Assembly: GCA_963827955.1 (NCBI GenBank)
Contig: CAWHDJ010000018.1
Coordinates: forward strand, 1,053,297 to 1,117,296
Length of the DNA stretch: 64,000 bases
From: an uncultured delta proteobacterium
Lineage (GTDB): Bacteria > Myxococcota_A > Polyangia > Polyangiales > Polyangiaceae
Direction of reading: 5' to 3'
A program made the translations under genes and the position numbers. The notes beneath the pieces were generated by a model. It was not told the origin of the DNA, ran no database searches, and worked only from the letters and a program-made list of their open reading frames with translations. Below are positions 8,810 to 62,919 of this stretch, piece after piece (the stretch's first letter is position 1; each line of letters starts with the position of its first letter).

Positions 8810-8825
8810 GCGGCGCCGCGGCGCC

Positions 8826-10022: not shown

Positions 10023-10218
10023 GGCGCTCGCGGAGGACGCACGCTTCGTGCCCGAGTTGCCTCCTCCTTATGGAGGAGAAAGGTCCCGGCTGTTCGTGAA
10101 CTGGGCCACCGCGAGAAGACGCCCGTGCGAACGGTTTGCTGCCACACGCCTGCACGGCCCCAGGCGGTGTTCGATCGGAGGTTCGGAGGCAAGCTCCCCG
10201 CGTCGTCGCCGAGCGCGA

Positions 10219-11616
10219 TCAGGGGCGGGCGTCCGCCGGCAGCTCGAGCAGGCGCTGGCCGAGAAGCCACACCTCGGCCACGCCGCCCTTGCTCGTGACC
10301 TTGAAGAGCTCCAGGCACCGCTCGCGCAGGTCGAGCAAGTCGCTCGCGTCGCGGCCGGAGCCCGCCTCGATGCGCGCGAGGACCTCGTTGACGCGCCCGT
10401 AGTATCTGTCAGCCGGAACAAGCAGGCCGCCGAGGGCGTGGTGCGTACGCGCATGGTTGTACCAGTGCAGGTGAGCTACGAGACGCCGCCGCATCTCTGC
10501 CGAATCATAGAAGCGATGGGCGTCGAACAGCTCCTTGTGGAGATTGGCGTTGAAGACCTCCACCTTCCCATTCCACTCTTTGTGCTCGGCCTCGAGGTGA
10601 TCGATCCCGAGCTCGGTCAAGAGCGCCGTGAAGCGCGAGACACCCTTCCACGACCAGAAGGCCGCGCCCTTGTCGCTCATCACCATCTCGGGTCGACCGT
10701 GGCGCGCGATTGCCTCCTCGAAGGCGGCGATCACGAAGTCGGCTCGCTCGCCGCCCTCGTCCACGCCATGGCCGACAACGTAGCGCGAGAAGTCGTCGAT
10801 GATGATCAGCGTGAAGGTGTTCGCGCGGTGGATGTTGCGCTGCACGAAGTCCAGATGCCAGAGGTGATTCGGGCGCGTCGCCTCGTAGCGCTGGTCGTGC
10901 ACCTTGCGCTCCACCTTCGGCGGGCGATACCCCGCCCCCTCCATCACCCGGCGCACCGTGTTGACGCTCGTCCGGATGCCCTTGCGCCGGAGCTGGTTGC
11001 GGATCTGGCTCGGCCCGAGCCCCGGATGGCGGTGCCACTCGTCGAGGATCTCCTTGTCGCGCTGCGCCTCGATCTCCTTCGGCGCCGGCCCCGACGTCGG
11101 CGATGGGCCGTTGCCCGCCGCGGCGCTGTGGACCTTCCGCTGCCAGCCGTAGATCGAGTACCGGCTCACGCCGAACTTCTTGCTCGCCTCGGTGATCCCA
11201 TGCGCGGCGGCGTGCTCGAGGACCTCGGCCTTCTGCGACGGCGTGTAGATCATTGCCACCCGCCTCTTGAGCGGTCGACGCACCGGCGGTTGCATGGTTG
11301 CCGCGGGCTCCTCGCGCTTCGCCTCGGCCGGCGGCGCCCCTACCTTCGTGTTCTCGGCCTGCTCCGCGCCGGCCTGCCCCGCTGCCACCTGCCCATCGCG
11401 CGTCTCCTCCTCCGCGGCTCCCTTCCGCTTGCGTCTGGGCCGCGCTCTTTCCTTCGACTTGCGCGCCATCGTCTTCGCCCCCGCTACTTGAGCCCACTTG
11501 GTCAGGGTCGTCTGGGGGACGCCATGCTTCCTCGCCGCCGCGCTGATTCCGAGCGCGGGAACGTCCACCAGCACCGCCTCGCGCTCCTCATTCGTGTAGC
11601 TTCGTCGCGCAGCCAT
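10219..11616 (-). mobile_element. Intact transposase ORF of an IS481-like (rve DDE) insertion sequence. The element probably spans about 10150-11700, but terminal inverted repeats were not resolved by eye.
   Basis: 465-aa uninterrupted ORF. It has two N-terminal HTH segments (RKHGVPQTTLTKWAQ; KKFGVSRYSIYGWQRK) and then HLWHLDFV...IIDDFSRYVVGHGV...SDKGAAF...HARTHHALGG, the DDE/rve signature. Confidence 0.8.
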
Positions 11617-13046: not shown

Positions 13047-13392
13047 AGGCTGGGGACCGACCCCATCGGCCGCAAGGTGGCCCCGCTCCTCACTACGCGC
13101 ACCCCGCCTGCCGACGGTCTAACGCAACGCGACACGCTCGCCGCATTAGGCGTGCGCAGCGCCCACAGCCCGCAGCCACGGCCGCTTCCATCGACCATCA
13201 GGAACCGCTCTGGTCGCGCATCCGCACGCTCTCCCGGGCCCGGCGCCACGTACGAGAACGCCTCGCGCGTCGATTTCCCTAAAAAAAGACGGACACCGGG
13301 AAGGGCCCTACAGCGATGGACGGGTAGAGGCGGTGAAAGGACCGGACCGGCGCCCCGGGGGGGGCGGCGCTTTGCCCGGAGAAGGTGACCCC

Positions 13393-15688
13393 ATGCACGA
13401 CGTCTTCAAAATCAGCTCCCCCGCGCTACCCAAGGACACGGGTGTGGTCGGCTTCCGCGGCTCGGAGGGTATCTCCCGGCTCTACGCGTTCGAGATCCAC
13501 CTGGCGCTCGCCCCTGGCGACGCGGATGCCTTCGAGCTCCCCTCGCGCCGTGGGCGCCAAGGGCACCCTCACCGTCGACCGGCACGACGGCCGCCCGCCA
13601 TTCGCCTTCCACGGCATCTTCGCCGAGGCGACGCTCGTCCACCAGGAGCCCGACGGCCGCGCCTTCCTCCGGGCCGTCCTGGTGCCGCGCCTCTGGCAGC
13701 TCACGCAGTCGCTGCACAGCCGCATCTTCACCCAGCAGTCCATCCCCGACATCCTGAAGAAGACGCTGGAGGATGGCGGGCTCACCTCCTCTGACTTCAG
13801 CTTCCAGCTCACCGGCCAGTACGCCACGGAGGAGCACGTCTGCCAGTACCGCGAGAGCGGCTTCGCCTTCTTCTCGCGGTGGATGGAGCGGGAGGGCCTC
13901 TACTACTTCTTCGAGCACGGCGACGACGGGGAGAAGCTCATCATCGCCGACGACAAGTCCGCGCACGAGGGTCTGGTGCCCAAGCCGGTGCGGTACTTTC
14001 CCCTTCTCGGGCATGACATGAGCGCTGGGGAGTGCCTGCACACCTTCCTGTGCCGGCAGCGAGCGCTTCCGGCCAGCGTGACCTTCAAGGACTACGACCA
14101 CGCGAAGCCCTCGCTCGACGTCTCCGGAACGGCGCCCGTATCCGCGACGGGCGCCGGCGAGGTGCACGTCCACGGCGCGCGATTTTTCACGCCCGACGAC
14201 GGCAAGCGCCTCGCCAAGCTTCGCGCGGAGGAGATGCTCGCCCGCCAACAGGTATTCACCGGGACCGGCACCGCGCTCTACCTGCGGTCGGGCTACACGT
14301 TCGACCTGACCGATCACCCGCGGGCTGCCTTCGACGCGACGTACCTCGTGACCGAGGTGGAGCACTTCGGTAACCAGGCGGCCAGGACCCCGGAGATGCT
14401 CAGGCTCACGGGGCTCGCGGAGGTGGCGGAGGACGAGGTGTACCGCGCCGAGGTCACGGCCATCCCCGCTACCGTGCAGTTCCGGGCAGAGCCGCGAGCG
14501 GTCTGGCCGCGGATTTATGGCACCGAGCACGGCACGGTGGACGGGGAGGCCGACAGCGAGTACGCGCAGCTCGACGACCATGGGCGTTACCTCGTCCGGT
14601 TCGCGTTCGACGAGAGCGACCTGGCCGATGGGAAGGCGTCGACCCGCGTCCGGATGATGCAGCCTCACGGCGGCGGGGTCGAAGGCTGGCACTTCCCGCT
14701 GCGAAAGGGGACGGAGGTGCTGTTCACGTTTCTGGGCGGGGACCCAGACCGACCCGTAATCGCGGGCGTCGTGCCGAACACGGAGAAGCCGAGCCCGGTG
14801 ACGAAGGCGAACCAGACACGGAACGTGATCCAGACGGGCGGGCGCAACAGGCTCGAGATCGAGGACAAGAAGGGGTTCGAGCGGATCACGTGGACCACTC
14901 CGTTCGCGAACACGATGATCCGCATGGGCTCACCGAACGCCGACCACGAGATGATCATCCGGACCGACGGCGCCACGCAGCTCGACGCAGGGCAGGATTG
15001 GGATGTCACTGTTGGCGGACACCTGTTCGAGCATGTGACCGGCCCGGTCGCCGAGAACTATGACACCGGGCATGGGACGACGATCAAGGGCGGTCGAATC
15101 CAGAACGTGACGTCGGGCGGGATGACCACCGACGTCGTTGGTGGCTGGTCCCACACGGTGGACGGTGGGGGCAAAATGGACATCGACGGCGGCTTCAAGG
15201 TGAACGTCACCGGCGACGCGATCACGACCGTGAGCGCTGACGCGGAGACCTTCGTAGGTGCCAACGAGGCGCACGTCGTCGGCGGCACCGCGACGCACAT
15301 CGTCTGCGGCTCGGTATTCCAGAACTACGGCCCAGTGACGGCTGTGTGCGCGAGCCTAGACTGGAGCATCCCCGGCGGCGCGACGGTCCACACGCCAAAG
15401 TGGGAGGTCCAGTCGCCCGAGAAGAACTGGCTCACGGCGCAGGGCATCGAGACGAAGGGCATCAACAAGGAACTCACTGGCCTCAGCTTCGAGACCACTG
15501 GGGTCCTGGTCGAAAGCGTCGGCGGTCACGTGGAGAACGTCGGTCTGCACGTCGAGACCATCGCTCTTCACTTCGAGACCGTCGGAATGCACGGAGCCAA
15601 CAAGCCGATCGAACTCGAAAGCCTCGGCACGTACGTGGGCCAACTCGGCGCGCACATCAAGTCGGCCGTGCTTCACGTGCTCAAGTGA
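13393..15688 (+). CDS. vgrG: Type VI secretion spike protein VgrG (TssI), with a frameshift near 13545.
   Basis: N-terminus MHDVFKISSPALPKDTGVVGFRGSEGISRLYAFEIHLAL in ORF 13333..13794 continues in ORF 13385..15688 with FFSRWMEREGLYYFFEHGDDGEKLIIADD, the gp27-like VgrG hallmark. A Gly-rich gp5-like beta-helical C-terminus is present (GGHLFEHVTG...GGRIQNVTSGG...). Confidence 0.85.
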
Positions 15689-15704
15689 AGGTGCGAGGCA
15701 CGTC

Positions 15705-18330
15705 ATGAAGGTCATCAAGCCCATCAAGCTCCCGATTCTCACCCGCATTGTAGAGCGCGCCCATAAGCCGGAAGCTCCACGTTGCCGCCATGCTCGGCTT
15801 CTCGCTTGACGCCCCCCGCGCCCTCCTCGACGAGATGGCCTTCTGGTCCACGGTGGCCGACGCGCTCGGCGCCTCGGGCGTGGTGGACGAGGGGTTCGCG
15901 AAGTGCCGGGGCGAGCTGCTCGTCGCCGGAAGCTTCTTCGCACCGGACGGGATGCCGCTGGCTGCCTCGTACGTCCGCACGAGGGTCGGCGCGGCGGACA
16001 AGCGCCTCGCAGTTGTCGGCAACCGCCTATGGAAAGACCATGCCGCGACCGATCCGGAGCCGATGGTGTCGATGCCGATCGACTGGGCGCACGCGTTCGG
16101 CGGTCCGCGCTTCGACCGGAACCCCTACGGCAAGGGCATCGACCCGCTGGTGAGCGGGGGGCTGGCGATCCCGCTCCCCAACGTCGACCACTACGGCGCG
16201 ATTACGCGCTCACCGGCCGACCGCGGCCAGCCCGCCGGCTTCCTGCCGATGGACGTCACCTTCGCCCAACGGCGGGCGCGCGCGGGGACGTACGATCAAC
16301 ACTGGCTCGACGAGCACTTCCCGGGCCTAGCCGCGGACGCAGCGCCGACCTTCTTCAACGTCGCGCCCGAGGATCAGTGGATCGAAGGCTTCTTTCGCGG
16401 CGATGAGGAAATCCTCGTCGAGAACATGCACCCCGAGCGTCCCCGTATCGAGGGCCGGCTCCCGGGCCTCGCCGCGCGCTGCTTCGTCACCCAGCGCGTG
16501 CCCGAGGGTGAGCGCTTCGTCGAGGTCCCGCTCCGCTGGGACACGGTCTGGCTCTTTCCCTCAGCCGCGGCCGCAGTCGTTATCGCGCACGGTACGCACG
16601 CGGTCTCCGAGGACGACGCCGCGGACGTGGTGCACCTGATCTGTGGGTGCGAGGACCCGACGTCGCAGCGGCCGGCGGAGCATTACCAGCAGGCGCTCGC
16701 ACGCCGCCTCGACAAGGACAAGGGCGCCCTCGCCGGGCTCTCGGACAGTGACCTGATGCCGCCGCGCGCGTCGGGCGTGGCTCCGAATATCGGCGAAATC
16801 GACATCGCGCGGTGGGTGAAGAGCGAGGGCCTGCACGCGAAGAACATGCGGCGGGGCGCACAGCGGACGCGCGCGGAGGTGAGGGCGATGGTCGAGGCAA
16901 ACGGGCTCGACCCGAAGGACTACGGACTCGGCGAACCTCTGCCCGAGCTAGAAGAGCCGCCGGTCGACGACCTCGATGCGCTGGCGGCCTACATGGAGGC
17001 GCAATCGGCGCGTGCGGACGCGATGCTCGCGGAGGCCAGGGACAAGGAGGCGAACGCGCAGGAGGACGTACGGAGGAAGTGCGCGGAGATGGGGGTCGAC
17101 CTCGACGCGATGATGGCGGAGGGAAAGAAGGGGGGCGTGGGGCCGCCGAAGCTCGACGCCGCGACCGAGGTCGAGAGGCTGCGCGATGTAGGCGTGAGAG
17201 GTGCGGAGGTCGACGCACTCAAGGCCGACGTGCGGCGGCAGGAGCAGGGCCTGATCGAGATGTACCGGCGCTTCGGGCACATGCAGCCCGCTGCGACCGC
17301 CATGGATCCGGAGGCGGCGGCGCGGCTGCGGGTGCTCGTCGCGCTCGCGATCGAGACCGGAGAGAGCCTCGCAGGGCGGGACTTTACGGGCGCGAACCTC
17401 TCCGGAATGCGCCTTGGCCACGTCGATCTCGCAGGGGCCTTCCTCGAAGCGGCCGACCTCTCGGACTGCTGGCTCGGCGACGCGAATCTGGAGGGCGCCG
17501 TGCTCGCGAAGGCGACCCTGCGGGGCGCCAGTCTCTTCAGAGCGAGGCTGCGTAGCGCGAATCTCGGCGGCGCTGTGCTCTGCGATGCGGTGTTCGAGCA
17601 CGCGGATCTCACCGATGCCGTGCTGAGCGAGGCCGACCTTGCCGGCGCGCGGTTCGCGGGCGCGACGCTCACGGGCGCGGATTGGATCGAGGCGAAGCTC
17701 GCCGGGGTGGACTTCTCCGGCGCCGTGCTGAGTCAGTGCAACCTGATCAAGGCGGACCTGCGCGGCACGCGCTTTACCCGTGCGGACCTGTCCGACGCGA
17801 ACCTCGTCGAGTGCACACTCGACGGGGCGGACTTCTCGGGCGCCAAGCTGGTGAAGACTACGTTCGTGGGATGCAAGGGTGAAGGAGTGTCGTTTCGCGA
17901 GGCGAATGTCCGGCAGGGGGTCCTCGTGCACGGCTCCTCCTTCGTGCGCGCCGACTTCCGCGATGCAGACATGGAGAAGGCCAACCTCCGGGGGACCGCC
18001 CTCGCGGGAGCGCACCTCGACCGGGCGAACCTCACCGGCGCGGACCTCTCCGAATGCGATGCCACTGGGGCCACCTTCGAGCGCGCAGTCCTCAAGGGGG
18101 CGCTCATGATTCGCACCGGCCTCGTCGACGTAACGCTGCGGGGCGCGAACCTGATGGATGCCCTCGCGTCCAAGGCTCGGCTCGCCGGGGCCGACTTCTC
18201 GGGGGCCAACCTCTTCCGCGCAGACCTCTCCCGTGTGGTCGGTGATGAACGGACGACGTTCGCCGAGGCGGAGCTGGGTCACGTGCGGCTCCTCCCGAAG
18301 GCCAACGTGCATCCCGGAGGTGCCCGATGA
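15705..18330 (+). CDS. DUF2169-like N-terminal domain fused to a long pentapeptide-repeat C-terminus. This is a T6SS accessory or adaptor candidate, with a frameshift near 15770.
   Basis: ATG at 15705 gives MKVIKPIKLPILTRIVER..., a DUF2169-type start. It is then out of frame with ORF 15790..18330. The C-terminal approximately 350 aa are A(D/N)LxGA-type pentapeptide repeats (ANLSGMRLGHVDLAGAFLEAADLSDCWLGDANLEGAVLAKATLRGASLF...). Confidence 0.75.
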
Positions 18331-19424
18331 ACCGCGATCTGCTCATGGACAAGGTGCGGCACGGCGAGCCCATCCGCCGCATGGATCTCTCGCATGTCGA
18401 TCTCGAAGGCGCCGATCTTTCCGGGGCCGTGTTCGAGGAGGTCCGCTTCCCGAAGGCGCTTCACGGGGCGCTGCTCAAGGAATCGGTCTTCGTGTCGTGC
18501 GACTTCACGGAATGCGACCTAGCCGGCGCGGACCTGCACCTCGCCACCGTGTATCGCTCGAAGCTCGACGGTGCGCTCTTCGATGCGGCCAAGCTGATCG
18601 CGGCGAGCTTTGTCGAGAGCAGCGCTGACGGCGCTTCGCTCACAAGCGTCGAGGCCCCGATCGCGAGCTGGGTGAAGACCTCGCTCCGACGCGCGTCGTT
18701 CGTGGGCTCGAACCTCGACCGAGCGAACCTCGTGGAGATCGACGCCGAGGATGCAGTGTTCACGAACGCCAACCTGGAGAAAGCGACGCTCTACCAGGCC
18801 GACCTGCGCACGACCGACCTCGCGGGCGCGAACCTCACGCTCACGACGCTGGTCGAGGCCAAACTGGGGCCGAAGTCCTTCTCCGGCATCCGGCTCTTCC
18901 GGACGCAGTTCATGAAGAGCGACCTCGCGGGCGCCAGCTTCGCAGGCGTCGACTGCACGCAGTGCAACTTCATGGCGGCGGACCTCCAGGGGGCGACGTT
19001 CGAGCGGGCCACGGGGCCGCAGTGCTTCTTCGGCGAGGCGAAGCTCCAAGGTGCGAGGCTCGTCGGCGGCGACTTCCGCCAGGCCGTGTTCGAGAAGGCG
19101 GACCTCTCGAAGGCGGATCTCTCTGGCGCGATGCTCGAGGAGGCGTACTTCGCGCTCGCCGTCGCCGTGGGAGCTCGCTTTCGCGACGCCAGGCTGCGAG
19201 AGGCGAACTTCTCTCACGCCGACGCCACGGCGGCCGACTTCTCCGGGGCGGCTCTCTTTCGGACGAGGTTCCACCGCGCGAAGCGCGACGGCGCCGCCCT
19301 CGCCGAGCTGGCGGGGTGGCTCGGCGATGACGAGAACCTCGCAAGGATCGAACGCTGGCAGCCGCAACACGGGGCGGCGCCTGATCGAGATGTGGACGGG
19401 CAAAGGAAAGGGTCGGAACGATGA
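18327..19424 (+). CDS. Pentapeptide-repeat protein associated with the T6SS module.
   Basis: Start overlaps the upstream stop (ATGA). Repeats include DLSHVDLEGADLSGAVFEEVRF, ANLEKATLYQADLRTTDLAGANLTL and ADLQGATFERA. Confidence 0.8.
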   Translation: MNRDLLMDKVRHGEPIRRMDLSHVDLEGADLSGAVFEEVRFPKALHGALLKESVFVSCDFTECDLAGADLHLATVYRSKLDGALFDAAKLIAASFVESSADGASLTSVEAPIASWVKTSLRRASFVGSNLDRANLVEIDAEDAVFTNANLEKATLYQADLRTTDLAGANLTLTTLVEAKLGPKSFSGIRLFRTQFMKSDLAGASFAGVDCTQCNFMAADLQGATFERATGPQCFFGEAKLQGARLVGGDFRQAVFEKADLSKADLSGAMLEEAYFALAVAVGARFRDARLREANFSHADATAADFSGAALFRTRFHRAKRDGAALAELAGWLGDDENLARIERWQPQHGAAPDRDVDGQRKGSER

Positions 19425-20065
19425 ACGCCGCGAAGAAGCTCGCTAGCACGGAGACGTACCTCGAGACCGGGACGGTGGAGCGCATCCTCAGCGGGACGGT
19501 CGAGGTGCGGCACGCCTCGGGAACCTGCCAAGCCCGGCGCGCGAAAGGTTGCCTCGTGCCTCCCGAGATCGGCGACACGGTGCTCTGCGCGCGAAGCGCG
19601 GAGGGCGCGTGGGTGCTCACCGTGTTGGAGGGCGAGGCGGGCGCGCCGACGCGGCTCGTCGGGGACGGCGACGTGCACATTCAGTCCCAGGGCGGCCGGG
19701 TCACGATCTCCTCGCCCGAGCGGGTCGACCTCGTGAGCGGCGGCGCCGTCGCGGTAAGCTCAGCCGAGCTCCACGTGCACGCCCGCAAGGGCTCCGTCGC
19801 CGTGGACGAGCTGGGCTTCCTCGGCAAGCTGGTGCGGGCGGAGGTGGCGAAGATCGTCGTGGTCGCCGAAGAGGTGGACTCCGTTCTCACGCGGCTGACC
19901 CAGCGGGCCAAGCGCGTCTTCCGCTTCGTCGAGGAGATCGACCAGACGCGCGCCGGCACCGTCGACATGCGCGCCCAGAACCTCGTCGGCATCCGCGGGG
20001 AGAACGCCGTGATCTCGGCGCGGGTGCTCGCCAAGATCGACGGTGAGCAGATCCACCTCGGCTGA
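19421..20065 (+). CDS. DUF3540-like protein, which commonly follows pentapeptide-repeat genes in vgrG islands.
   Basis: 214-aa ORF with overlapping start (ATGA). The call rests on gene context and size and was made from memory of the family, not from a search. Confidence 0.6.
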   Translation: MNAAKKLASTETYLETGTVERILSGTVEVRHASGTCQARRAKGCLVPPEIGDTVLCARSAEGAWVLTVLEGEAGAPTRLVGDGDVHIQSQGGRVTISSPERVDLVSGGAVAVSSAELHVHARKGSVAVDELGFLGKLVRAEVAKIVVVAEEVDSVLTRLTQRAKRVFRFVEEIDQTRAGTVDMRAQNLVGIRGENAVISARVLAKIDGEQIHLG

Positions 20066-20092
20066 GCGACGAGCAAGGAAGGAGGCTCCTCC

Positions 20093-20494
20093 ATGTTGGC
20101 GAAGACATCCGCTGGCGGGCTCTGCACCGCATTTCCGGACGTGTGCCTGACACCCGCACCGCCCGCGCCCGCGCCGGTCCCGATCCCCTACCCGAACATC
20201 GGCGCCAATCCCACCAACGTGAGCTTCGTGCCCAACGTGCTCCTGACGTGCGCCCCGGCGCACAACATGGGCACGCAGCCACCGATGACGAACGGTGACA
20301 ACGCCGGCCTGGCAACCGGCGTCGCCTCCGGGACCGTGATGGGCCCGGCGCGCACGGTGACCGCGGCGTTCACAGTTCTCGTCGGGGGCATGCCGCTCGC
20401 ACGGCTCACCAGCGTGACGATCCAGAACAACACGAACGCCCCCGGCGCCAAGGTCGTGCCCAGCGCCACCAACGTCCTCGTCCTGGCCCCGTGA
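20093..20494 (+). CDS. DUF4150 (PAAR-like) domain protein. It is a standalone 133 aa with no fused toxin domain.
   Basis: MLAKTSAGGLCTAFPDVCLTPAPPAPAPVPIPYPNIGAN..., the PAAR-like DUF4150 N-terminal signature. It ends 10 bp before the next ORF, which is in a different frame. Confidence 0.7.
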   Translation: MLAKTSAGGLCTAFPDVCLTPAPPAPAPVPIPYPNIGANPTNVSFVPNVLLTCAPAHNMGTQPPMTNGDNAGLATGVASGTVMGPARTVTAAFTVLVGGMPLARLTSVTIQNNTNAPGAKVVPSATNVLVLAP

Positions 20495-20504
20495 GAACGC
20501 GCAC

Positions 20505-21953
20505 ATGAACGAGCAGAACCGACAGCGGCTAGGGCGCATCGCCACGCGGCACACCCGTTGCGTGGCGCATGGGCAGAGCGAGACCGAGAGCGACGCGACG
20601 TTCATCGCCGAGTTCGGACGCGTCCGAGATGAAGTGCTGCGACCCGTCATGGATGAGGTGGGTCTCCAGCTCCAAACGGACGGGTACGAGTTTCGGATCG
20701 CCAATGGGGGCACCGAAGCATCGCCCGCGGTCGAGTTCCACGTCGTGATCCCGGGCCGCACCGACGCGAAGGACACGATCCGGCTTTTCGCGCACAAGGA
20801 CGCCTTGCGTGGCTGGCAGGTGATCGCCGAGATCGAGCTCAAGCGAAGCCCGATGGAGCTGGCTCGCTTTGACGCCGGCGACCCGATCACGCGGGACGTC
20901 GCCGAGCGGCTCATCGTGGACGCGACGGAGCAAGTGTTCGCGTCGGCGCTGTCGGCCCCGAGCCGAGAAGCAGAAGCGCGCGCAACGCCGTCGGAGTCGG
21001 TGTCACCGCGACCGCCGGTAGCGGACGTGGCTCCAGCGGCCACTGGCCCGCACCCTGCGGAGGGCGCAGTCGGCGCGCGCGCCCTCGTCCTCCAGCGGCT
21101 CCGTGCCGGCCGCCTTCTCTACGGTCTCAACCTCGTTGGCGCCGACCTCCACGGCATCGACTTTACGGACCGTATGATGCCCGCGCTCGACCTCCGAGAA
21201 GCGAACCTGAGCGGCTGCACCCTCGTCGGGGCGCGACTCGTCGCCGCACGGCTCGACGGCGCCGACCTCACCGACACGGACCTGACGCGCGCCGACCTCA
21301 CACGCGCCAACCTCATCGGCGCTACCCTGACGGGCGCCCGGCTCGACGGAGCCGTGCTCAGCGATACGGTGGGCTTGCAGCTCGCTCCCGCAGACGCTCC
21401 CGAGCCCGAGCCGGAGCCGGAGCCTCGCGCTGTAGAAGCGCCCGCGGAGCACGTCGACGTCTTCGCCGTGCCCGACAAGCCGCCTCCGCTGCCGCCCTTG
21501 CCCGCGGGCCCGGAGATCCGCTGGGCGGGTTGGGCTGGAGAGCAGCGCATGGGCGACACGGAGGAGGTGGACGTGCGGGTCTTCCAGCGACGCGCACTTC
21601 CCTTCGCTGAGGGGCCCCCGGCACCGGAGTTCTTTGCCGCTGCGGACGCCGCGAGAACGGAGCCGCGCGTCTCGCGACCCCCGGGAAACGAGACCGTGGC
21701 ACTGCCCGTGCTCCAGGTGCCCGACGAGCCGCTGACCGTGGAGCAGTACGCCGCGTTCTGCGCGGAGCTGTCGGTCTTTCCGGACGCTGCGGACAGCATC
21801 CATCGGCAGTACGGCGTGCCCGGCGCGGAAGCGCGTGGCCTCCTCGATGCGGCGTTCGCGCGACGGTTCGCCGCCGACCCGACGCTCGAGCGAAAGTGCC
21901 GCGCGCTGGTCCGGCACTACGAGGGCTGGTTCCGTCGCGAAGGTCCGCGGTAG
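20505..21953 (+). CDS. Unknown three-part protein with a novel N-terminal domain of about 150 aa, central pentapeptide repeats and a novel C-terminal domain of about 150 aa. It is a candidate T6SS cargo or immunity protein.
   Basis: Central repeats: LNLVGADLHGIDF...LREANLSGCTLVGARLVAARLDGADLTDTDLTRADLTRANLIGATLTGARLDGAVL. The flanking domains match nothing I recognise. Confidence 0.65.
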   Translation: MNEQNRQRLGRIATRHTRCVAHGQSETESDATFIAEFGRVRDEVLRPVMDEVGLQLQTDGYEFRIANGGTEASPAVEFHVVIPGRTDAKDTIRLFAHKDALRGWQVIAEIELKRSPMELARFDAGDPITRDVAERLIVDATEQVFASALSAPSREAEARATPSESVSPRPPVADVAPAATGPHPAEGAVGARALVLQRLRAGRLLYGLNLVGADLHGIDFTDRMMPALDLREANLSGCTLVGARLVAARLDGADLTDTDLTRADLTRANLIGATLTGARLDGAVLSDTVGLQLAPADAPEPEPEPEPRAVEAPAEHVDVFAVPDKPPPLPPLPAGPEIRWAGWAGEQRMGDTEEVDVRVFQRRALPFAEGPPAPEFFAAADAARTEPRVSRPPGNETVALPVLQVPDEPLTVEQYAAFCAELSVFPDAADSIHRQYGVPGAEARGLLDAAFARRFAADPTLERKCRALVRHYEGWFRREGPR

Positions 21954-22148
21954 CCGAACGGCTGCCGGCGCAACGCCCCACCATGACTTCAACGCCCCCT
22001 GCGGCAGGGGTGCGCAGAACTGCGCCCGAAGGGTCGCGAGCCCTCACGGGCCAAGGGACGCGGTGTGCTTCACGCGACCGGAGAGGGAGGAGTGGACGAT
22101 GATGAGCAGCGATCGAGCAAAGGCGATGGAACGACGCGGAGGCAGTCG

Positions 22149-23318
22149 ATGAGCACGACCGCACCGCCAGCATCGGGACCTCGTCCCGCCCCCAACCATC
22201 CCTCGGCGACGACCAGCGCGCCAGCGCCGTGCGCGCCCGCGCTCCTGCCAGCGGCCGGGATCGCCCTCGGGGAGGAGCTCGGCGGCGACGCCCTGGACGC
22301 GGGGGCCGCTCATCGACCCGAGGTCGACGTCGAGACCATGCGCTCCATCCATGCGCAGGTGCGCGATCTGGTACGGAGGGAATCGTCCGTGGGTGCGCCG
22401 GGATTCCGATTGGTCTGCGTGCTCGAAGGCGACATCTCCTGGCGCGACATCCGAATCGACGGGCCTGGCTACGCGGTCCTTGGCTCGCATCGCGGGTGCG
22501 ACGTCGTGCTCGCGCGCGATCGCGGCATCTGGAGACGCCATCTCGCCGCGATCTGCGTCCCCGTCGAGGATGGGCGCGTGGGCCTACGGCTGGTCGGTCT
22601 CGCGACCGACCAGCCGTTCTTTCTTGACGATGACACGCCACGACAGGCGGTCCTGGTGCGAGGGTCCTTCGCGATGCGCGTAGGCCGCCATGTCATCTGC
22701 GGCTTCCCCATCGGAGAGCGCGCAGACATCGGCAGCCCGTCCGAATTCACCCTCTGCCCGCCCGTCTCGCAACTTGGCGCGGTCAGCTCGGTCGGTGACG
22801 TCCGAGTGATCCTGGTCCGCGGCCACGTCGGAGCCGTCGTTGACCTTCCGGCAGCGGCGTTCGATGGCGGCGTGCTCATCGGCCGGGCGCTCCGATGCTG
22901 CGACGAGGGGCTCCGTCGGGTCTGCGGGGACGCGATCTCGCGCGGTCACGTGCTCATCGTGCGCGTCGGCGGAGACATGCTCGCCTTCGATCTCTGCTCC
23001 AGCAACGGCACCCGGGAGGCCGGGGTCCGCGTGCGGCGGGCCCGGCTGCGCGGCGCCGCACCAAGACTTCAGCTCGGCAAGGACGTGATCCTGACAATCG
23101 CGCTCCCCGGGCTTTGGGTCGGAGGGGATCCGCATGCCGACATCCGCGCTCGGGTACCCGGTCACCCAACGTTTGGAGACTGCTCCGAGCGCGAGTGCAT
23201 GGTCTGCGGCGTACGAGACTGCCCTCGCGGGGACCCTCTTCACTACCAACAGGATGGCTGCCCAGCCTGCGGGGTTGATTCCCCCCGCGGACCGGCCACG
23301 CCAGGAGATGCCGCATGA
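22149..23318 (+). CDS. Protein with two FHA domains. The start is uncertain.
   Basis: GYAVLGSHRGCDVVLARDRGIWRRHLAAICVPVEDGRVGLRLVGLATDQPFFLDDD and GVLIGRALRCCDEGLRRVCGDAISRGHVLIVRVGGDMLAFDLCSSNGTREAGVRV both fit the FHA pattern (GR..cD..l.d..vSR.Ha.i......l.Dl.S.NGT). Confidence 0.6.
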   Translation: MSTTAPPASGPRPAPNHPSATTSAPAPCAPALLPAAGIALGEELGGDALDAGAAHRPEVDVETMRSIHAQVRDLVRRESSVGAPGFRLVCVLEGDISWRDIRIDGPGYAVLGSHRGCDVVLARDRGIWRRHLAAICVPVEDGRVGLRLVGLATDQPFFLDDDTPRQAVLVRGSFAMRVGRHVICGFPIGERADIGSPSEFTLCPPVSQLGAVSSVGDVRVILVRGHVGAVVDLPAAAFDGGVLIGRALRCCDEGLRRVCGDAISRGHVLIVRVGGDMLAFDLCSSNGTREAGVRVRRARLRGAAPRLQLGKDVILTIALPGLWVGGDPHADIRARVPGHPTFGDCSERECMVCGVRDCPRGDPLHYQQDGCPACGVDSPRGPATPGDAA

Positions 23319-23570: not shown

Positions 23571-26500
23571 ATGGAAGCTGGAGCCATTTTGCAGGGTCGC
23601 TACCGCGTGGTCCGCGCAGCGGGCGCCGGCGGCATGGGCGGCGTCTATCGCGCCGACAATCTCGCCACGGGCCGCGCCGTCGCGCTGAAGGTCCTCCTGC
23701 ACCAAGACGCCGCCGCGTCGAGCCGCTTCGTGCAGGAGGCCCAATCGCTCGCGGCGGTGAGCCACCCGGCGATAGTCGGCTACGTGGACCACGGCGTGGC
23801 CGAGGAGGGGCGCCTCTTCCTCGTGATGGAGTGGATCGAGGGCGAGGATCTCGCGGCGGTGCTGGCGCGCGGGGCGATGGCTCCGACGGAGGCGCTCGCC
23901 GTCGCGCGCCGCGTGGCGGCCGGGCTGGCCGCGCTACATGCGGCGGGCGTCGTGCACCGCGACCTGAAGCCCGCGAACGTCGTGCTGGAGAGCGGCGATC
24001 CGGCGCGCGCGCGCATCGTCGACCTCGGCATCGCACGTGCAGGATGGCGCACGCGGGCACTGACACGCACGGGCGCCATCCTGGGGACCGCGGGCTACAT
24101 GGCCCCTGAGCAGATCGAGGCGTCGCGCGGCGCCGACTCGCGCGCGGACGTGTACGCGCTCGGGTGCGTCCTGTTCGAGTGCCTCGCGGGCCGGCCGGCG
24201 TTCGATGGCGGGCACCTGCTCATGGTGCTCGCGCGGGCGTTGGGCGACGAGCCGCCGCGCCTGCGCGAGATCGTCCCCGGCGTGCCGGACGAGATCGACG
24301 CGTTGGTTGCGCGGATGATGGCGCGCCACCCGGCGCAGCGCCCCGAGGACGGCGCCGCGGCTCTTGCGGCCCTCGAGCGCGTCGCGGCGTGGGGGGACGC
24401 CGCCTCCACCGCGGCGCCGGGCGCGGCGGAGGGCGTGCCTCTGCGGGGGGAGCGGAGGCCCCTGGGCCTTGTGCTCGCGCGCGCGCCAGACGACCTAGCC
24501 GACGCGACGATGGACGCCGCCGACGCCGGAGCCGCGCACGCGGCCGCAGATGTGGTCGCGGCCCGCTGGGGAGCGCGCGCGTGGAGCTTCGGCGCCGACG
24601 CCCTGGCGCTCGTCGTTCAGCACCCGGGCGGCGCGCGCGAGCAGGCTGCGCGATCCGCGCGAGCGGCGCTCGATCTGGAGGCGAGGCTCCCCGGGTGGAC
24701 CCTCGCGGTGGCGACCCCGAGCGCCGACATGAGCGGCGAGGTGCTGGCCGCCGTAGTCGACCGCGCGGCGGGGCTGCTCGTGGCGGGCGCCGGAGGCGTG
24801 CGGCTCGACCCGGTGACGGCCGCGTTACTCGACGTGGGCTTCGACGTCGAGCACACGGGCGCGGGGGCGCTCCTCTGCGGCTTCTCGGCGGCGCGCGACG
24901 ACGCCCGGCCGCTCCTGGGCAAGCTGACGCCGTGCGTGGGCCGCGAGGCGGAGCTGCGGTTGCTCGAGGGCGCGCTCGCCGCGTGTGACGACGAGCAGGC
25001 CCCGCGCGCGGTGGTCGTGCTCGCCGACGCGGGCTGGGGGAAGTCCAAGCTCCGCCGCGAGATCATCGCGCGCGCCCGCGAGCGGGGGACGGTGCGCGTC
25101 GTTCAGGCGCGCGCGGAGATGGACGGCGCGCTACACGGCCTCGGGATCGTGCGCTCGCTGCTCGCCGACGCCGCCGGGCTCGGCGACGAGGCGGGCTCAG
25201 CGCGCTGGCGGGCGCTCGCTGGGCACGTCGAGCGGACGATCGCGGGGGCGAGTGCGGACCTCGTGGAGATTTGCGGCGAGCTCGCGGGCGCGCCCCCGCC
25301 GGAGCCGGGGGAGGCGCTCCGAGCCGCGCGCAAGGATCCCGCGGAGCTGCGCTGGCGGGCGATCGAAGCGGTCGCGGCTTGGCTGCGGGGCGAGGCCCGC
25401 GAGCGGACGGTGCTCGTGTCGCTGGAGGATCTGCACCAGGCGGACGCCAGCAGCGTCGGGGTGCTCGTCGAGGCATGGAAGGAGCTGGGCGACACGCCGG
25501 TGCTCCTCGTCGGCACCGCCCGACCCGAGGTCGACGACCTGCACCCTCACCTCTTCGCGATGCGCGGGATGCAGACGGTGCGGCTCGGCCCGCTAGCGCG
25601 CCGCGCAGCGGAACGGCTCGCGCGGCAGGCGCTCGGCGACGGGACGCCGGCGGATCGCGTCGCCCGGATCGTCGACCGCGCGGGCGGCCACCCGCTGCTC
25701 CTGGAGGAGCTGGTGCGCCACGCAGCCGCCGCGCGCGACGACGCCGAGGCGCCGGCGTCGGTGCTCGCGCTCCTGCAATCGCGCCTGCTCGCGCTCGATC
25801 CGGCGGCGCGCCGCCTGCTCCGCGCGGCGAGCGTGTTCGGGGAGCGCTTCCCGCCCGAGGGGGTCCTCGCTTTGCTGCCGGAAGGCGCACGCGCCGACGT
25901 CCCCGTGCTGCTCGACGCGCTGACGCACGAGGAGCTGGTCGTCGCCCCTCGGCGGGGCGCGACGGACGCCGAGGGGTACGTCTTCCGGCACGCGCTCGTG
26001 TGCGCCGCCGCCTACGACATGCTGCCCGCGGACGAGCGCGCGGCCGCCCACCGCGCGGCGGCCGCATGGCTCGCAGCGCGCCCCGAGTCCGACGAGGCGG
26101 CCGTCGCCGATCAGCTCGCGCGGGCCGGCGACGCCGCCGCAGCCGCGCCGTGGTTCCTCCGGGCGAGCCGGAGAGCGGCGGAGCGCAGCGGGGTCGTCGA
26201 GGCGATCGCGCTCGCGCGCCGAGGGCAAGCCGACGGCGTGGACGTCGGGCTCCACGTCGAGCTGGTCGTCGAGGAAGCCTGGGACCTCATGAACCTCGAA
26301 GACCTTGCCGCCGCTTTCACGGCGCTCCACGACCGGGTGCCCTGGTCCCGCCTCCGGGTCGGGTCGCCCCTGTGGGTGATGGCGAAGGCGAGCGAGGCGG
26401 CGCTGGCCGGCTTCGCCAGCGAGCCAGGAGCGCTCGTCGAGGGCGTCGGCGCCCTGCTCGCGCAGACGGTCGAGCCCCCTCCTCCCATCGAGACGTGGGG

Positions 26501-27413
26501 CCGCGCTGTCGCGCTGCTGGTGCCCGCGCTCGTCCACCTGGCGATGGTGGACGAAGTCCGTGCGCTGCTGGCGCTCGCCGAGCGAAGCGGGCCGCTGCGA
26601 GATGACGATCCCTTCCTGGCGTTCCTCGAATTTGCACGCGCTGGCCATCACCTGTGCACCGACAGCGGGGCCGCGATCGCCGAGATCCGTCGGTGCGTCG
26701 ATCGGTCGAAACGGGCCGGCCTGCGCGATCGCCACGGGTTCGCCGCGGTCGCAGCCGTTATCCTCGCGGTCGCCGGCTGCGCCGGCGAGGCGACCTCCGT
26801 CGCGCGCTCGACGCGCGCGCACGTCGAGCGCCGGCGCGAAGGCTTCTATGCCAACTGGATCACAATCGCGGAGCTGCTCACCCGCATCTACCGCGAGTCG
26901 CCGGAGAATTGCGAAGCGTACGCGGCGCGGCTCAACACGACAGACTGGGTGAGCTTCGCGTACGGAAAGGCGGACGCCAGGATGAGCGCGGCGCTCGCGG
27001 CCCCTGGCGATCGCGGTGTGGTCGATGCGGTCTTCGCCGACATCTCGGGGATGGCGGAGGCACTCGTGACGTTCTCGACCGTCTCGATGACGCTGGCCTC
27101 GTTCCTCGCGCACCTCGAGCTGATGCGCGAGCACCCCCTCGAGGCGCTCGCCCACTCCGATCGCGGTCTGCGAGACTTCGTGACCGGAGACATAAGCGCG
27201 CGCACCTCGCTGCGGCTGTCGCGGATCCGCGCCCTCGCGGCGCTCGGCCGGCACGATGACGCGCGCGCCGCGCTGCACGAGGCCCGTGCCCGCATCGCGC
27301 GCATCGCCTCTGAGATCGAGCGCCCGGAGGACCGGGCCGCCTTTCTCGCGCACCCGCTGAGCGCGGAGACGCTCGCATTCAACATGTCCAGCCCGGCGGG
27401 GCTCGGCGCCTGA
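23571..27413 (+). CDS. Ser/Thr protein kinase with a large C-terminal ATPase/TPR-like regulatory region (1280 aa).
   Basis: Hanks kinase motifs: GAGGMGGVY, VALKVL, HRDLKPANVVL, DLGIARAG, GTAGYMAPEQ. A P-loop-like segment (ADAGWGKSKLRRE) lies downstream, followed by Ala/Leu-rich helical repeats. Confidence 0.85.
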   Translation: MEAGAILQGRYRVVRAAGAGGMGGVYRADNLATGRAVALKVLLHQDAAASSRFVQEAQSLAAVSHPAIVGYVDHGVAEEGRLFLVMEWIEGEDLAAVLARGAMAPTEALAVARRVAAGLAALHAAGVVHRDLKPANVVLESGDPARARIVDLGIARAGWRTRALTRTGAILGTAGYMAPEQIEASRGADSRADVYALGCVLFECLAGRPAFDGGHLLMVLARALGDEPPRLREIVPGVPDEIDALVARMMARHPAQRPEDGAAALAALERVAAWGDAASTAAPGAAEGVPLRGERRPLGLVLARAPDDLADATMDAADAGAAHAAADVVAARWGARAWSFGADALALVVQHPGGAREQAARSARAALDLEARLPGWTLAVATPSADMSGEVLAAVVDRAAGLLVAGAGGVRLDPVTAALLDVGFDVEHTGAGALLCGFSAARDDARPLLGKLTPCVGREAELRLLEGALAACDDEQAPRAVVVLADAGWGKSKLRREIIARARERGTVRVVQARAEMDGALHGLGIVRSLLADAAGLGDEAGSARWRALAGHVERTIAGASADLVEICGELAGAPPPEPGEALRAARKDPAELRWRAIEAVAAWLRGEARERTVLVSLEDLHQADASSVGVLVEAWKELGDTPVLLVGTARPEVDDLHPHLFAMRGMQTVRLGPLARRAAERLARQALGDGTPADRVARIVDRAGGHPLLLEELVRHAAAARDDAEAPASVLALLQSRLLALDPAARRLLRAASVFGERFPPEGVLALLPEGARADVPVLLDALTHEELVVAPRRGATDAEGYVFRHALVCAAAYDMLPADERAAAHRAAAAWLAARPESDEAAVADQLARAGDAAAAAPWFLRASRRAAERSGVVEAIALARRGQADGVDVGLHVELVVEEAWDLMNLEDLAAAFTALHDRVPWSRLRVGSPLWVMAKASEAALAGFASEPGALVEGVGALLAQTVEPPPPIETWGRAVALLVPALVHLAMVDEVRALLALAERSGPLRDDDPFLAFLEFARAGHHLCTDSGAAIAEIRRCVDRSKRAGLRDRHGFAAVAAVILAVAGCAGEATSVARSTRAHVERRREGFYANWITIAELLTRIYRESPENCEAYAARLNTTDWVSFAYGKADARMSAALAAPGDRGVVDAVFADISGMAEALVTFSTVSMTLASFLAHLELMREHPLEALAHSDRGLRDFVTGDISARTSLRLSRIRALAALGRHDDARAALHEARARIARIASEIERPEDRAAFLAHPLSAETLAFNMSSPAGLGA

Positions 27414-29822: not shown

Positions 29823-30619
29823 AGGCTGGCCGTGCGCGTGGGGTTCGCTATCCCTTGCGCCCTCTCGCCCCACCCAGTGCCACGTGATGGCGAGGCCGCT
29901 CGGCTTCCCTCTCGGAGCCCCCCGACGGCGCGGTGCGGGAGGGATGTGAGCAAGCCGTGAACGAATCGACGCAGAGCGAGTCAGCAGACCAGTCCTCGAA
30001 CCCCGCGGATGTCCCATCCCAGCCGGCCGCGGGCCTTCCACCACGTACACGCAGACCGATGCGTGACGTACCGATGCTCGGAGCACCGCCGTGGCTCTGG
30101 GCGGCCAGACCGTCGCCGAGCACGTCGTTCGGTACGCCAGCCCACCATGCGAAGCGGTTCGGTGCTCGACGGCGTCGACGGCCCGCTGGCCTTCGTGTGT
30201 ATCATCGGTCCGCAACGAGGAGGATGTGCTCGCCGCCCAAGCCCACAAGCTCGACGACGCTGCGCTGGCGCCGCAACCTCGCGACGTCCGTGGTGGTCGC
30301 AGGAGCCGCGTCGTGAGCGGCGACGGAGCCCGCAGGCACCCGAGGACCCCCGCGACGCGCACGCGGGAATGCTGCGGCCGCCCTCGAGCGTCTTACCGTG
30401 TGCAGGTCGAGCGCTCGGCGCCCGACGCGTACACCGCTCAGATCAAGGTCATGGACGACGCCGCCACTCCACATCCCGACGAAGAGCTCGCACCGGGCGT
30501 GTTCGATGTGGTGGGAGAGCTGCTGCTGGAGCTGACGCGCGAGGGGACGGGATGAAGCACATCGGCGAGAGAGTGCGGCTGATTCTGTTCGTGGACTGGT
30601 GCGGCTCCGGAACGCTTCC

Positions 30620-32290
30620 ATGCGTTCTACGTCCGGGTCACGAAGAAGGAGTCGCTGCGGACGGACCTGTCGATCCCCAACCGAGATCGCAAGGTCTCAC
30701 GAGGTGGCGGCGCAACGCGGCTGGGGCGACTACTGCATCTACGTCGAGCTGACCGACGTCAATGCCAAGTGGTGGGTGGAGAAGCGACCGGCGTTCAAGC
30801 GGCTCGTCGAGGACATCCGCGCGCGGCGCGTCATCGCGGTCTGTGCCCGGCACACGGACCGGCTCTGGCGGGGCGACATCCAAAACAAGTTCCTGAAAGA
30901 GCTGAGCGATCATCGCGCCGAGCTGTGGGACTTCACGTGCCAGCGCGAGTTCAAGAGCGCACAGGGCCGCTTCGCCATCCAGATGCTCAGCGCCGCGGGC
31001 GAGTACGAGGTGAACCTCACCGGCGAGCGCATCCGCGAGATGAAGCGTGGCAAGGCGCTCGGGGGCCAGCCCGGCGGTGGACCGCCTCCCTTCGGCTACA
31101 CCTCACAGTCCCGCCGCAAGCTGGCCTTGGTCGAATCCGGAGCCGAGGACGATGAAGCCTACCGTCAAGCGTGCGTGGCGTTTCCCATCGGTAACGCGTG
31201 GTACATCGACGAGGTTGAGGGCCCGGTCGTCCGGATCATCTTTGCGCTCTACACCGCGCCGGACACGCAGTGGGGTACGAAGCGGATCGCACGCTACCTC
31301 AGCGCGAACGGCCATAGAGCGCGCGAAGGGGGGCCGTGGTCCTCGAACACCATCCGCAAGCTCATCGCGAACCCGGTCTACGGCGGCTACACGACCTTCG
31401 ACGAGGATGCCTACACGGAGAAGGTTCCGTCATCGCTGCCGCGCCGCCGTCAGAAGCGCTTCCAGGGGAAGCATCCGCTCATCATTCCTGCTGAGCAGTG
31501 GGAGCGCGCGCAGGAGATCCGCGACACCCAGCACTCGTTCAAGCGCACGCGTCCGGGCCCCAAGTCGAGCGAGGTCTTCTCGCTCGTCGGCATCCTGCGG
31601 TGCCCGAAGTGCGGCAAGAGCATGATCGGCAAGCTGGCTGGCAGCTCAAACAAGTCGCAGAGGCGCTACTACATGTGCGGCCTTCGCCACACTTCGGGCC
31701 CTGACCAGTGCGACTTCCCGCTGATCGACGCAGTGGCCCTTCAGCGTGAGGTCTGGAGCTGGCTGCACGACGTCCTGCAGCTCACCCGCCTACGTGCACG
31801 AGCACGTGCAGCGGCTGCAAGCGAAGCTCGCGGCGCAGATCCCGGACCTCGAGCGCAGCGTCGGCGTGCTGGACCGGCGCGAGACCGAGGTGCGCGCGGC
31901 GATGGCCAAGTATTTCCGCTTGCTCGAGGCGTCCGACGATCGCGAGCGTGACGCGCCCCTTCTGGAGCGGGTGCGCGAGCTGGGCGCTGAGCTGCGTAGC
32001 GTACAGGCCACGCTCACGGAGGTGCGACGTGAGGCGGTGGCGGTTCCCGCGCCGACGATCAGCGTCGAGCAAGTTCAAGCGTACCTGGCAGCGCTGCGCA
32101 CCCGCGTTGACGAGCGCCCGGGACTCCAGCGAGCCGTGTTCCACCAGTTTCGCCAGGACCACGACCTGGACGTCCGCCCCGTCTCCAAGACCGAGTTCGT
32201 CCTGTCGATCGCCTTCCGCGCCGGCCAATTCGTGCATACCGGGAACGCGGGGCGGAAGGGCACCGGGCGGCTGTACGCCGTGGTGAGCCC
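30620..32290 (+). CDS. Large serine recombinase with resolvase catalytic domain, recombinase domain, zinc ribbon and coiled-coil. At least three frame changes are needed, near 30625, 30680 and 31780. The end is approximate.
   Basis: AFYVRVTKKESLRTDLSIPNQ (catalytic Ser region) appears in one frame. Then LEIARSHEVAAQRGWGDYCIYVELTDVNAKWWVEKRPAFKRLVEDIRARRVIAVCARHTDRLWRG follows in ORF 30599..31951. The recombinase domain has FGYTSQ and ANPVYGGY. The zinc ribbon is CPKCGKSMIGK...YYMCG. The coiled-coil continues in ORF 31746..33140 (VQRLQAKLAAQIPDLERSVGVLDRRETEVRAAMAKYFRLLE...). Confidence 0.8.
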
Positions 32291-48699: not shown

Positions 48700-48809
48700 G
48701 GGCGGACGCGTGCGTGAGCCTGGCGCGTGCGCCCCCGTTGCGGTGCCGGTCATGATGGAGGAGCGCACCGGCCTTGCGCTCCGTGCCGCCCCCGGTCCAA
48801 GGTCGCGCC

Positions 48810-50402: not shown

Positions 50403-50549
50403 TCCTCCGGTGGGCGCGCCCACTCGGAGGCCTCGCCGGGGGGCAGAGGGGGGTGATTGAGGGTGCGACGAGTTTGACACCCCTTTCGACCCCCCGATAT
50501 CTTGGGCCCCCGCCCGGGACGGCTTCGGAGTGGGATCCGCCCTGGAAAC

Positions 50550-62700: not shown

Positions 62701-62919
62701 GTGGTACGGGCGCGACGATATCACCAAACGTCGCCGGGGCTGATTTTTGAGACCCGGTTCCCCTGCGGCGGCCTCCCGTGGGCGGCCCCGTAAGATCGCG
62801 CCCCCTTCGCCCGTTCTCCCTGCGTGCAGCTCGCCGCGATCCCCGCCTGGCCCCTGGCCCTCGCCGCGCTCGGCGGCGGGGGGCCTCCGCCGGTCGTGCG
62901 GCCTCCGCCGCGTCCGGGT

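Follow-up and report, generated by a model that had tools for sequence, protein, structure and literature searches.

Cassettes of the Tvp type, which load the spike of type VI secretion systems (T6SS), were defined only in 2025–2026 and almost entirely from Proteobacteria, with five components in the published accounts. The Class III cassette consists of VgrG1, TvpAB, TvpB, TvpC, and Paar1 (Monlezun, Earl and Coulthurst, EMBO J 2026, PMC13373197); its equivalents are the TagAB, TagB, TagC, and TagD proteins of Burkholderia and the DUF2169 synteny type C (Sachar et al., JBC 2025, PMC11883445). PAAR proteins that are small and carry no effector domain accompany Class III systems (PMC13373197, PMC11883445, PMC13584744), and TagD likewise is PAAR-like and has no effector domain (PMC13584744). 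Formation of a TvpAB-TvpB-TvpC-Paar1 pre-complex, in which TvpC is then replaced by VgrG, has been shown in Serratia marcescens alone (PMC13373197). Here we describe a cassette of this class on a 64,000-nt stretch of DNA, referred to as the window, of an uncultured bacterium of the Polyangiaceae (contig CAWHDJ010000018.1 of assembly GCA_963827955.1, positions 1,053,297–1,117,296, forward strand). Whereas its DUF4150 gene and the cassette class are already known, the gene downstream, coding for a protein of 482 amino acids (aa), belongs to an undescribed family and adds a sixth conserved gene to the cassette.

The operon at 13385–20494 is a Class III Tvp (DUF2169 synteny type C) spike-loading cassette. 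It comprises vgrG, a gene for a DUF2169 protein with C-terminal pentapeptide repeats, a gene for a separate pentapeptide-repeat protein (PRP), a gene for a long DUF3540 protein, and a gene for a small, effector-free DUF4150 protein with a PIPY motif (Table 1). The TvpAB/TvpB and TvpB/TvpC gene pairs overlap by 4 nt each, and vgrG is syntenic in all related loci. By homology, the pre-complex mechanism of S. marcescens would presumably apply to the window cassette as well. The DUF4150 protein, which matches the Pfam family Tox-PAAR-like/DUF4150 over its full length (expectation value (E) 2.6e-37; profile positions 2–108 of 108), is 90–97% identical to 133-aa orthologues in loci L002–L006 and L010. 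It is a complete tip protein of the Paar1/TagD type and ordinary for this class of cassette. A preliminary description of the same stretch had regarded a stand-alone DUF4150 protein as unusual; it is not odd here, because the cassette is of Class III, the DUF4150 proteins of which are small and lack an effector domain.

The 482-aa gene starts in the +1 frame relative to the DUF4150 open reading frame (ORF) ((20505 – 20093) mod 3 = 1), and the coordinates, the 10-nt gap, the frame, and the pentapeptide core of its product are all as described before. Both ORFs are real genes, as judged by codon-position GC and by strong homologues. The GC content at third codon positions (GC3) is 0.90 in the DUF4150 ORF and 0.83 in the 482-aa ORF, each ORF forms one continuous frame, and full-length homologues were found with E values down to 1e-183. 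The preliminary description had taken frame errors to be rampant in the window and had suggested that a single indel splits a DUF4150-X-pentapeptide-Y effector into the two ORFs. Separation of the DUF4150 domain from an effector body by a sequencing error or a real indel at 20480–20510 would agree with the N-terminal fusion of DUF4150 to toxins in Class I and Class II systems, as in Tde2, Tse7, PefE, and VP1415 (PMC13373197, PMC11883445), with a spacer of just 10 nt, and with the next gene being in the +1 frame. It is, nevertheless, extremely unlikely. Junctions were compared between the window and eight loci independent of it, recovered from metagenomes and genomes. In every one of these loci, the PAAR-like protein is 130–133 aa long and ends in one of four variants of V-[LV]-[VI]-L-A-P (VLVLAP, VVVLAP, and VLILAP among them), followed by the stop codon. 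The N-termini encoded by the second gene are likewise related (MxExxR type), reading MNEQNR in four loci and MNKLNR, MKEHNR, or MHELSR elsewhere; in L008, the gene has a GTG start and its product reads xNEQNR. The spacers, in contrast, measure –4 (L004/L005), –4 (L008), 8, 9, 14, 16, and 39 nt. Against the PAAR gene, the second gene is read in frame 0, +1, or +2, depending on the locus. Conservation of the PAAR stop and of the second start, combined with a variable spacer and frame, rules out an indel in a fused ancestor.

Further observations speak against the split as well. The DUF4150 profile is fully covered within the 133 aa, and small, stand-alone PAAR proteins are characteristic of Class III. 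A separate assembly, L001 (run ERR11523675), has the same junction; over 3.4 kb, six positions distinguish it from the window, none of them within 20208–22113, although this run may share its source genome with the window. Finally, all six genes of the cassette match their homologues in length, so that there is no sign of frame errors in this operon. The split or frameshift reading was rejected on account of the comparison of the eight loci and of the identical junction in L001; the DUF4150 gene and the 482-aa gene are two separate, intact genes which end one operon.

The family to which the 482-aa protein belongs is defined by its N-terminal domain (residues 1–150; N-domain). Full-length relatives of the 482-aa protein are few and share 44–63% identity, and further relatives have the N-domain and the C-terminal part in common, with the PRP being absent. 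A search of 1.84 billion proteins with a profile of the N-domain gave 168 cluster representatives at E ≤1e-3, 59 of them at E ≤1e-10. Among the best 150 of the 168 representatives, about 130 are stand-alone proteins of 140–170 aa, and 17 have lengths of 375–637 aa. Since most members are the bare domain and a tail is found in few, the 150-aa domain is the ancestral and defining unit of the family and the tail a clade-specific addition. The extended members inspected show one type of tail, consisting of an optional PRP, one to five units ending in [AS]LPF, and usually a helical C-terminal domain, which is missing from P0015. Many members have no PRP or just a remnant of one, and the PRP is dispensable in the family. 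P0172 (566 aa) retains only a degenerate PRP remnant at residues ~195–235 (GLSGANLSRANPPKAVLAGARFDDAVMVD), which suggests that the PRP is ancestral in the extended clade and has been deleted in several lineages. The C-terminal region alone has only 24 relatives in the database, mostly fragments. Pfam searches gave no match for stand-alone relatives of the N-domain and no toxin domain in 10 further extended members that were scanned. All named sources of family members are Polyangiaceae, Sorangium, or Chondromyces; the family is undescribed and narrowly distributed.

The gene for the N-domain adjoins a DUF4150 gene in all 16 independent loci that offered enough context, and all of them contain the same cassette of VgrG, DUF2169-PRP, PRP, DUF3540, and DUF4150 genes. 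In 14 of the 16 loci, it is located directly downstream of the DUF4150 gene on the same strand, with a 4-nt overlap in three of these 14. In the other two, which are from metagenome-assembled genomes of Polyangiaceae, the two genes are adjacent but convergent (L015, 8001–8480 / 9711–10100; L016, 8001–8507 / 8647–9039), indicating that the linkage outlives inversion. The same adjacency is seen in Chondromyces crocatus and in three Sorangium strains, where the protein is a stand-alone one of 148 aa, and with a distant 168-aa member (profile E 5.9e-8). Six Sorangium/Polyangiaceae loci were recovered by scanning a genome collection with one peptide pattern, which does not match the window's own protein. 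The T6SS connection proposed for the 482-aa protein in the preliminary description is thus borne out by strict synteny. The gene that follows the N-domain gene differs in every locus and codes for an FHA protein, a PP2C protein (on the opposite strand), an HNH helicase, a lipoprotein, or small unrelated ORFs; in one locus, a DUF4379 protein is encoded on the opposite strand, followed by an integrase. Since this downstream gene is never conserved, there is no immunity candidate, in line with the previous remark that no obvious immunity gene follows. The FHA protein named there as the next gene product of the window was also found (22065/22149–23318; FHA domain, E 5e-6).

The Pfam matches of the 482-aa protein are confined to Pentapeptide families, at approximately residues 205–288, where tandem A(D/N)LXX repeats form a predicted quadrilateral β-helix. 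Searches with residues 1–155 and 337–482 did not yield a Pfam match even at E ≤10. NCBIfam returned sub-threshold PRP matches only for the 482-aa protein and none for the flanking parts, and a sequence profile search of the PDB detected PRPs only, with no relative of the N- or C-terminal parts. The terminal regions, which had been called unrecognisable, are so by all three of these resources. Descent of the PRP from the TvpAB/TvpB repeats of the cassette was considered and rejected, as identities to these repeats are 28–37%, compared with 40–58% (over short stretches) to unrelated PRPs. The cassette repeats being no closer than unrelated PRPs, nothing points to a particular origin of the PRP. 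No signal peptide or transmembrane segment was seen in the 482-aa protein on inspection by eye.

A full-length AlphaFold2 model, based on a 40-sequence alignment, had a mean predicted local distance difference test score (pLDDT) of 80.6 and a predicted template modelling score (pTM) of 0.40, indicating that the modules are predicted with confidence but that their mutual arrangement is not fixed. In the N-domain, helices are predicted for residues 3–21, 26–58, and 130–150, the latter following five antiparallel strands, with pLDDT mostly >90; when modelled separately (54 sequences), the domain reached a pLDDT of 88.7 and a pTM of 0.76. The preliminary description had left room for structure prediction to show no additional folded domains, but both domains flanking the repeats are predicted to be folded, with pLDDT >90. 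The region between the repeats and the C-terminal helical domain (residues 334–405) contains the motifs PExRWAxWAG, GDT352EEVDVRVFQRRALPF367, GPPAPxFFAAADAAR, and GNET397VALPV. Twelve sequences show no variation at T352, L365-P366-F367, or E396-T397, and in nearly all of these V, L, or M occupies the position +3 after T352 and T397.

A related tail was also found on a 317-aa protein which is encoded outside the cassette, with a GC3 of 0.91. It matches residues 382–477 of the 482-aa protein (BLASTP E 5e-7, 29% identity over 110 aa), its C-terminal domain is very like those of the extended family members P0007, P0176, and P0177, and it has no Pfam match. Occurrence on a protein outside any T6SS cassette indicates that the motif-plus-helical module is free-standing, and the presence of the same tail on a non-T6SS protein of the same window suggests an endogenous partner. 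A literature search for the ALPF/LPF motif gave nothing relevant.

We consider it about an even call that the 482-aa protein is a sixth protein associated with the spike, specific to this lineage and acting as an accessory or adaptor. Its N-domain would be an additional subunit with the accessory function of a chaperone or adaptor, binding to Paar1 or to the Paar1-TvpC/VgrG tip complex. In one sub-clade, the N-domain would bear a flexibly linked, non-enzymatic interaction tail made up of a short PRP helix, the TxxV...ALPF region, and the four-helix domain; this tail might take up room in the baseplate, meet the demands of an assembly checkpoint, or hold an endogenous partner on the spike. An accessory role is favored by the prevalence of members that consist of the 150-aa module only, by the tight, often translational coupling to the PAAR gene, by the single type of tail without recognisable toxin domain in the extended members examined, by the missing immunity gene, and by the tail module on the non-T6SS protein. 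It is also favored by the chaperone-like properties of the N-domain, which is acidic (isoelectric point (pI) 5.2, and 5–6 in most relatives); Paar1, in contrast, has a basic pI of 8.6 and is hydrophobic (grand average of hydropathy 0.42).

Several points weigh against such a role. The matches to the N-domain fold are generic. Foldseek found nothing in the PDB at E ≤1e-3, and the folds that resemble the N-domain, i.e., class I chaperones of type III secretion systems and α+β sandwiches like those of frataxin/CyaY, share ≤14% sequence identity. The chaperones ExsC, ShcA, SycH, SicP, and Spa15 and the frataxin/CyaY folds, moreover, lack the long helical hairpin with which the N-domain begins (residues 3–58). 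Given a common α+β sandwich topology, the low identity, and the negative Foldseek search, there is no evidence of homology to these folds. Residues 1–155 likewise did not match the profiles of the adaptor and chaperone families DUF4123 (Tap/Tec), DUF1795 (Eag), DUF2169, and DUF2875 (E ≤10). Binding of the N-domain to Paar1, VgrG, or Tvp proteins is putative, as are its accessory role and the action of the tail. Published Class III cassettes from Proteobacteria comprise five components and no sixth gene (PMC13373197); since five-gene cassettes work without it, the extra gene is dispensable for the basic mechanism. The last position after the PAAR gene is also commonly occupied by genes of cargo effectors, and Sachar et al. 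expect the effector of synteny type C to be a separate protein (PMC11883445). Compared with Sorangium, the N-domain shows 28–31% identity, TvpC 38–40%, and Paar1 59–63%; the N-domain is thus the fastest-diverging part of the cassette, which would also fit a cargo protein.

The protein could, accordingly, be a non-enzymatic cargo effector, the N-domain of which docks on Paar1/VgrG while the tail is delivered and acts by binding. We regard this as unlikely but a serious candidate. Like the genes of T6SS cargo effectors, which neighbor the vgrG/PAAR they depend on, the N-domain gene adjoins the DUF4150 gene in 16 of 16 loci, and an immunity gene would not be needed if the target were eukaryotic or the action not self-toxic. 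On the other hand, most members of the family are bare 150-aa domains with nothing to deliver, and the tail is of a single, non-polymorphic type, without toxin domain in the 10 further extended members scanned. The tail module moreover recurs on the non-T6SS protein at 46670–47623, and there is no conserved immunity gene downstream. No catalytic domain was recognised in the 482-aa protein by Pfam, NCBIfam, or PDB profile searches, or in the 10 extended relatives by Pfam. The features of specialised effectors of the Tde2/Tse7 type, namely, an in-frame toxin domain and a conserved downstream immunity gene, were not found. Of the possible "novel T6SS effector" of the preliminary description, the T6SS link stands by virtue of synteny, and so do the unrecognised folded domains, but as an effector the protein is no more than a candidate, with neither a toxin domain nor an immunity partner detected.

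The invariant T352 and T397, with V, L, or M at +3 in nearly all sequences, create T-x-x-[V/L] motifs that resemble FHA ligands. This would be consistent with a regulatory scaffold that ties the spike to Ser/Thr phosphorylation, a kinase writing, an FHA protein reading, and a PP2C phosphatase erasing the marks on T352 and T397. Control of T6SS assembly by Thr phosphorylation (PpkA/PppA/Fha) is an established form of regulation. In the window, the FHA gene and a gene for a Pkinase + AAA_16 protein (23571–27413) follow the cassette, and homologues have PP2C genes in their vicinity in L003 and L004 and kinase genes in L008 and L010. The FHA gene, however, does not recur beside the homologues (tblastn matched L001 only), and the stand-alone 150-aa members are without the Thr motifs. 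Myxobacterial genomes contain hundreds of kinase, FHA, and PP2C genes; the association may therefore be due to chance, and one such gene within 10 kb in about half of the loci seems near what would be expected of such genomes. We consider the phosphorylation scaffold quite unlikely.

Very unlikely is a role as a cytoplasmic immunity or anti-toxin-like protein against the VgrG-Paar1 spike's own activity. Vai1, the immunity protein of Serratia, is a periplasmic DUF3192 protein with a membrane anchor, its gene immediately following vgrG1, and is unrelated to the 482-aa protein in sequence, location, and gene position. Neither a DUF3192 domain (Pfam) nor a signal peptide or transmembrane segment (by eye) was found, a long interaction tail would be unexpected on an immunity protein, and the fold match is generic. 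A more far-reaching reading, which we judge rather unlikely, holds that the 150-aa N-domain family is a hitherto overlooked sixth Class III component of Polyangiaceae-type myxobacteria that binds the Paar1 tip. In this sub-clade, the domain would have been fused to a motif-rich scaffold (TxxV...ALPF units and the four-helix domain) which non-T6SS proteins also have; the fusion would couple spike loading physically to another cellular system, possibly FHA plus Ser/Thr-kinase signalling, or would travel into prey as an effector that acts by binding.

Table 1. Genes of the spike cassette, modules of the 482-aa protein, and the 317-aa protein with a related tail (positions in the window)
Feature	Position	Strand	Remarks
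VgrG spike protein, 767 aa, heads the cassette	13385–15688	+	TIGR03361 E 3.6e-89, Phage_GPD E 1.1e-67
TvpAB/TagAB-type protein, 846 aa	15790–18330	+	DUF2169 at residues 3–266, E 1.3e-74; C-terminal Pentapeptide, E 4.6e-57
TvpB/TagB-type stand-alone PRP, 365 aa	18327–19424	+	Pentapeptide E 5.2e-49
TvpC/TagC-type protein (long DUF3540), 214 aa	19421–20065	+	DUF3540 E 3.1e-64, profile 2–199 of 199
Paar1/TagD-type tip protein (DUF4150 ORF), 133 aa	20093–20494	+	ATG 20093, TGA 20492–20494; PIPY at residues 30–33 (nt 20180–20191)
Intergenic spacer, 10 nt	20495–20504	+	GAACGCGCAC; same letters in assembly L001
482-aa ORF	20505–21953	+	ATG 20505, stop 21951–21953
N-domain, residues 1–150, family-defining	20505–20954	+	Two N-terminal helices, five-stranded antiparallel sheet, C-terminal helix (predicted)
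Pro/Ala-rich disordered linker, residues 151–185	20955–21059	+	pLDDT <50 for 162–186
Capping helix and ~4.5–5 coils of pentapeptide-repeat β-helix, residues 186–295	21060–21389	+	
Pro-rich linker (36% Pro), disordered, residues 296–333	21390–21503	+	pLDDT <50 for 304–326
Conserved short-linear-motif region, residues 334–405	21504–21719	+	pLDDT 40–79, short helices
C-terminal four-helix domain, residues 406–482, and stop	21720–21953	+	pLDDT 95–98
317-aa protein, outside the cassette	46670–47623	+	Helical domain, Pro-rich linker, two ...GT...P.GPALPF units, helical C-terminal domain

The cassette resembles an auxiliary vgrG module, and the region that holds it may be mobile or auxiliary. T6SS core families did not match any of the window ORFs scanned with Pfam. 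A gene for an IS3-type transposase (rve, HTH_Tnp_1) is located upstream of the cassette (10219–11616, – strand), and a gene for a large serine recombinase follows downstream (30599–31951, + strand). In two related loci, a second gene for a DUF2169 protein with pentapeptide repeats lies directly upstream of the cassette vgrG (L008, 1–2658, – strand; L017, 1–1607, + strand), with no TvpB, TvpC, or PAAR gene of its own within view. A literature search for myxobacterial T6SS cassettes gave nothing relevant.

The FHA gene downstream of the cassette contains the sole indel that separates the window from L001, which is 1 nt long (~22934 in the window, ~2885 in L001). The window frame keeps the FHA domain (E 5e-6), whereas the 376-aa version of L001 has no Pfam match; as its frame leaves the domain intact, the window is probably correct at this position. 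Inside the FHA ORF (22065–23318), a perfect, GC-rich hairpin of 14 bp with a T-rich tail behind it is present at 22586–22617 (+ strand). It is the only strong terminator-like site between 13 and 23.6 kb, and the number of such sites is not above the expectation from shuffled sequence. Farther downstream, a 754-aa ORF (48692–50956, + strand) has a response-regulator receiver domain at residues 637–738, and another frame over most of it (48774–50402, + strand; 542 aa, GC3 0.93) is supported by codon bias; there may be a frame problem near 50400, or the two calls may overlap. A 910-aa ORF that reaches the window edge (61267–63999, – strand) shows weak matches to small GTPases of the Ras/Arf type at approximately residues 487–620 (E 1.3e-4 and 7.8e-4).

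The window contains neither a new kind of system nor a new toxin, and the 482-aa protein is not a demonstrated effector. If the accessory reading is true, the Tvp scheme would be extended by a sixth gene that is strictly syntenic in predatory myxobacteria with large genomes. In Serratia, no separate VgrG1 effector was found, and the sixth gene would provide a handle on the cargo of the VgrG-Paar1 spike or on its check before firing. The tail, in addition, reveals an uncharacterised motif-plus-helical module in at least two proteins of the window.

A functional parallel to the proposed role of the N-domain is TvpD (PRK06147/thiolase-like), an extra PAAR chaperone of Class II, for which an action on the DUF4150 domain, together with the DUF2169 protein, has been proposed (PMC13373197). 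Both would be additional, class-specific accessories for DUF4150. TvpD and the N-domain are, however, unrelated in sequence (no Pfam or NCBIfam match) and differ in size and fold, and the TvpD gene precedes the PAAR gene and occurs with a PAAR-toxin fusion, whereas the N-domain gene follows a stand-alone PAAR gene. The specialised effectors Tde2, Tse7, PefE, VP1415, and TseV, which are fused to DUF4150, have the DUF4150/PIPY tip and the association with VgrG/DUF2169 in common with the window. Unlike these, the DUF4150 protein of the window stops after its domain, the next protein is encoded by a separate gene in every relative, and the 482-aa protein showed neither a toxin domain nor an immunity partner. 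Compared with the PRPs Rfr, MfpA/Qnr, and TvpB, that of the 482-aa protein has only about 4.5–5 coils and is set between two unrelated domains. The Class III Tvp cassette of S. marcescens (VgrG1-TvpAB-TvpB-TvpC-Paar1) is matched by the window in all five components and in their order. The window differs from it in that no vai1/DUF3192-type gene is inserted between vgrG and tvpAB, and from the published Class III cassettes in general by the extra conserved sixth gene after the DUF4150 gene, which is not described in PMC13373197, PMC11883445, or PMC13584744.

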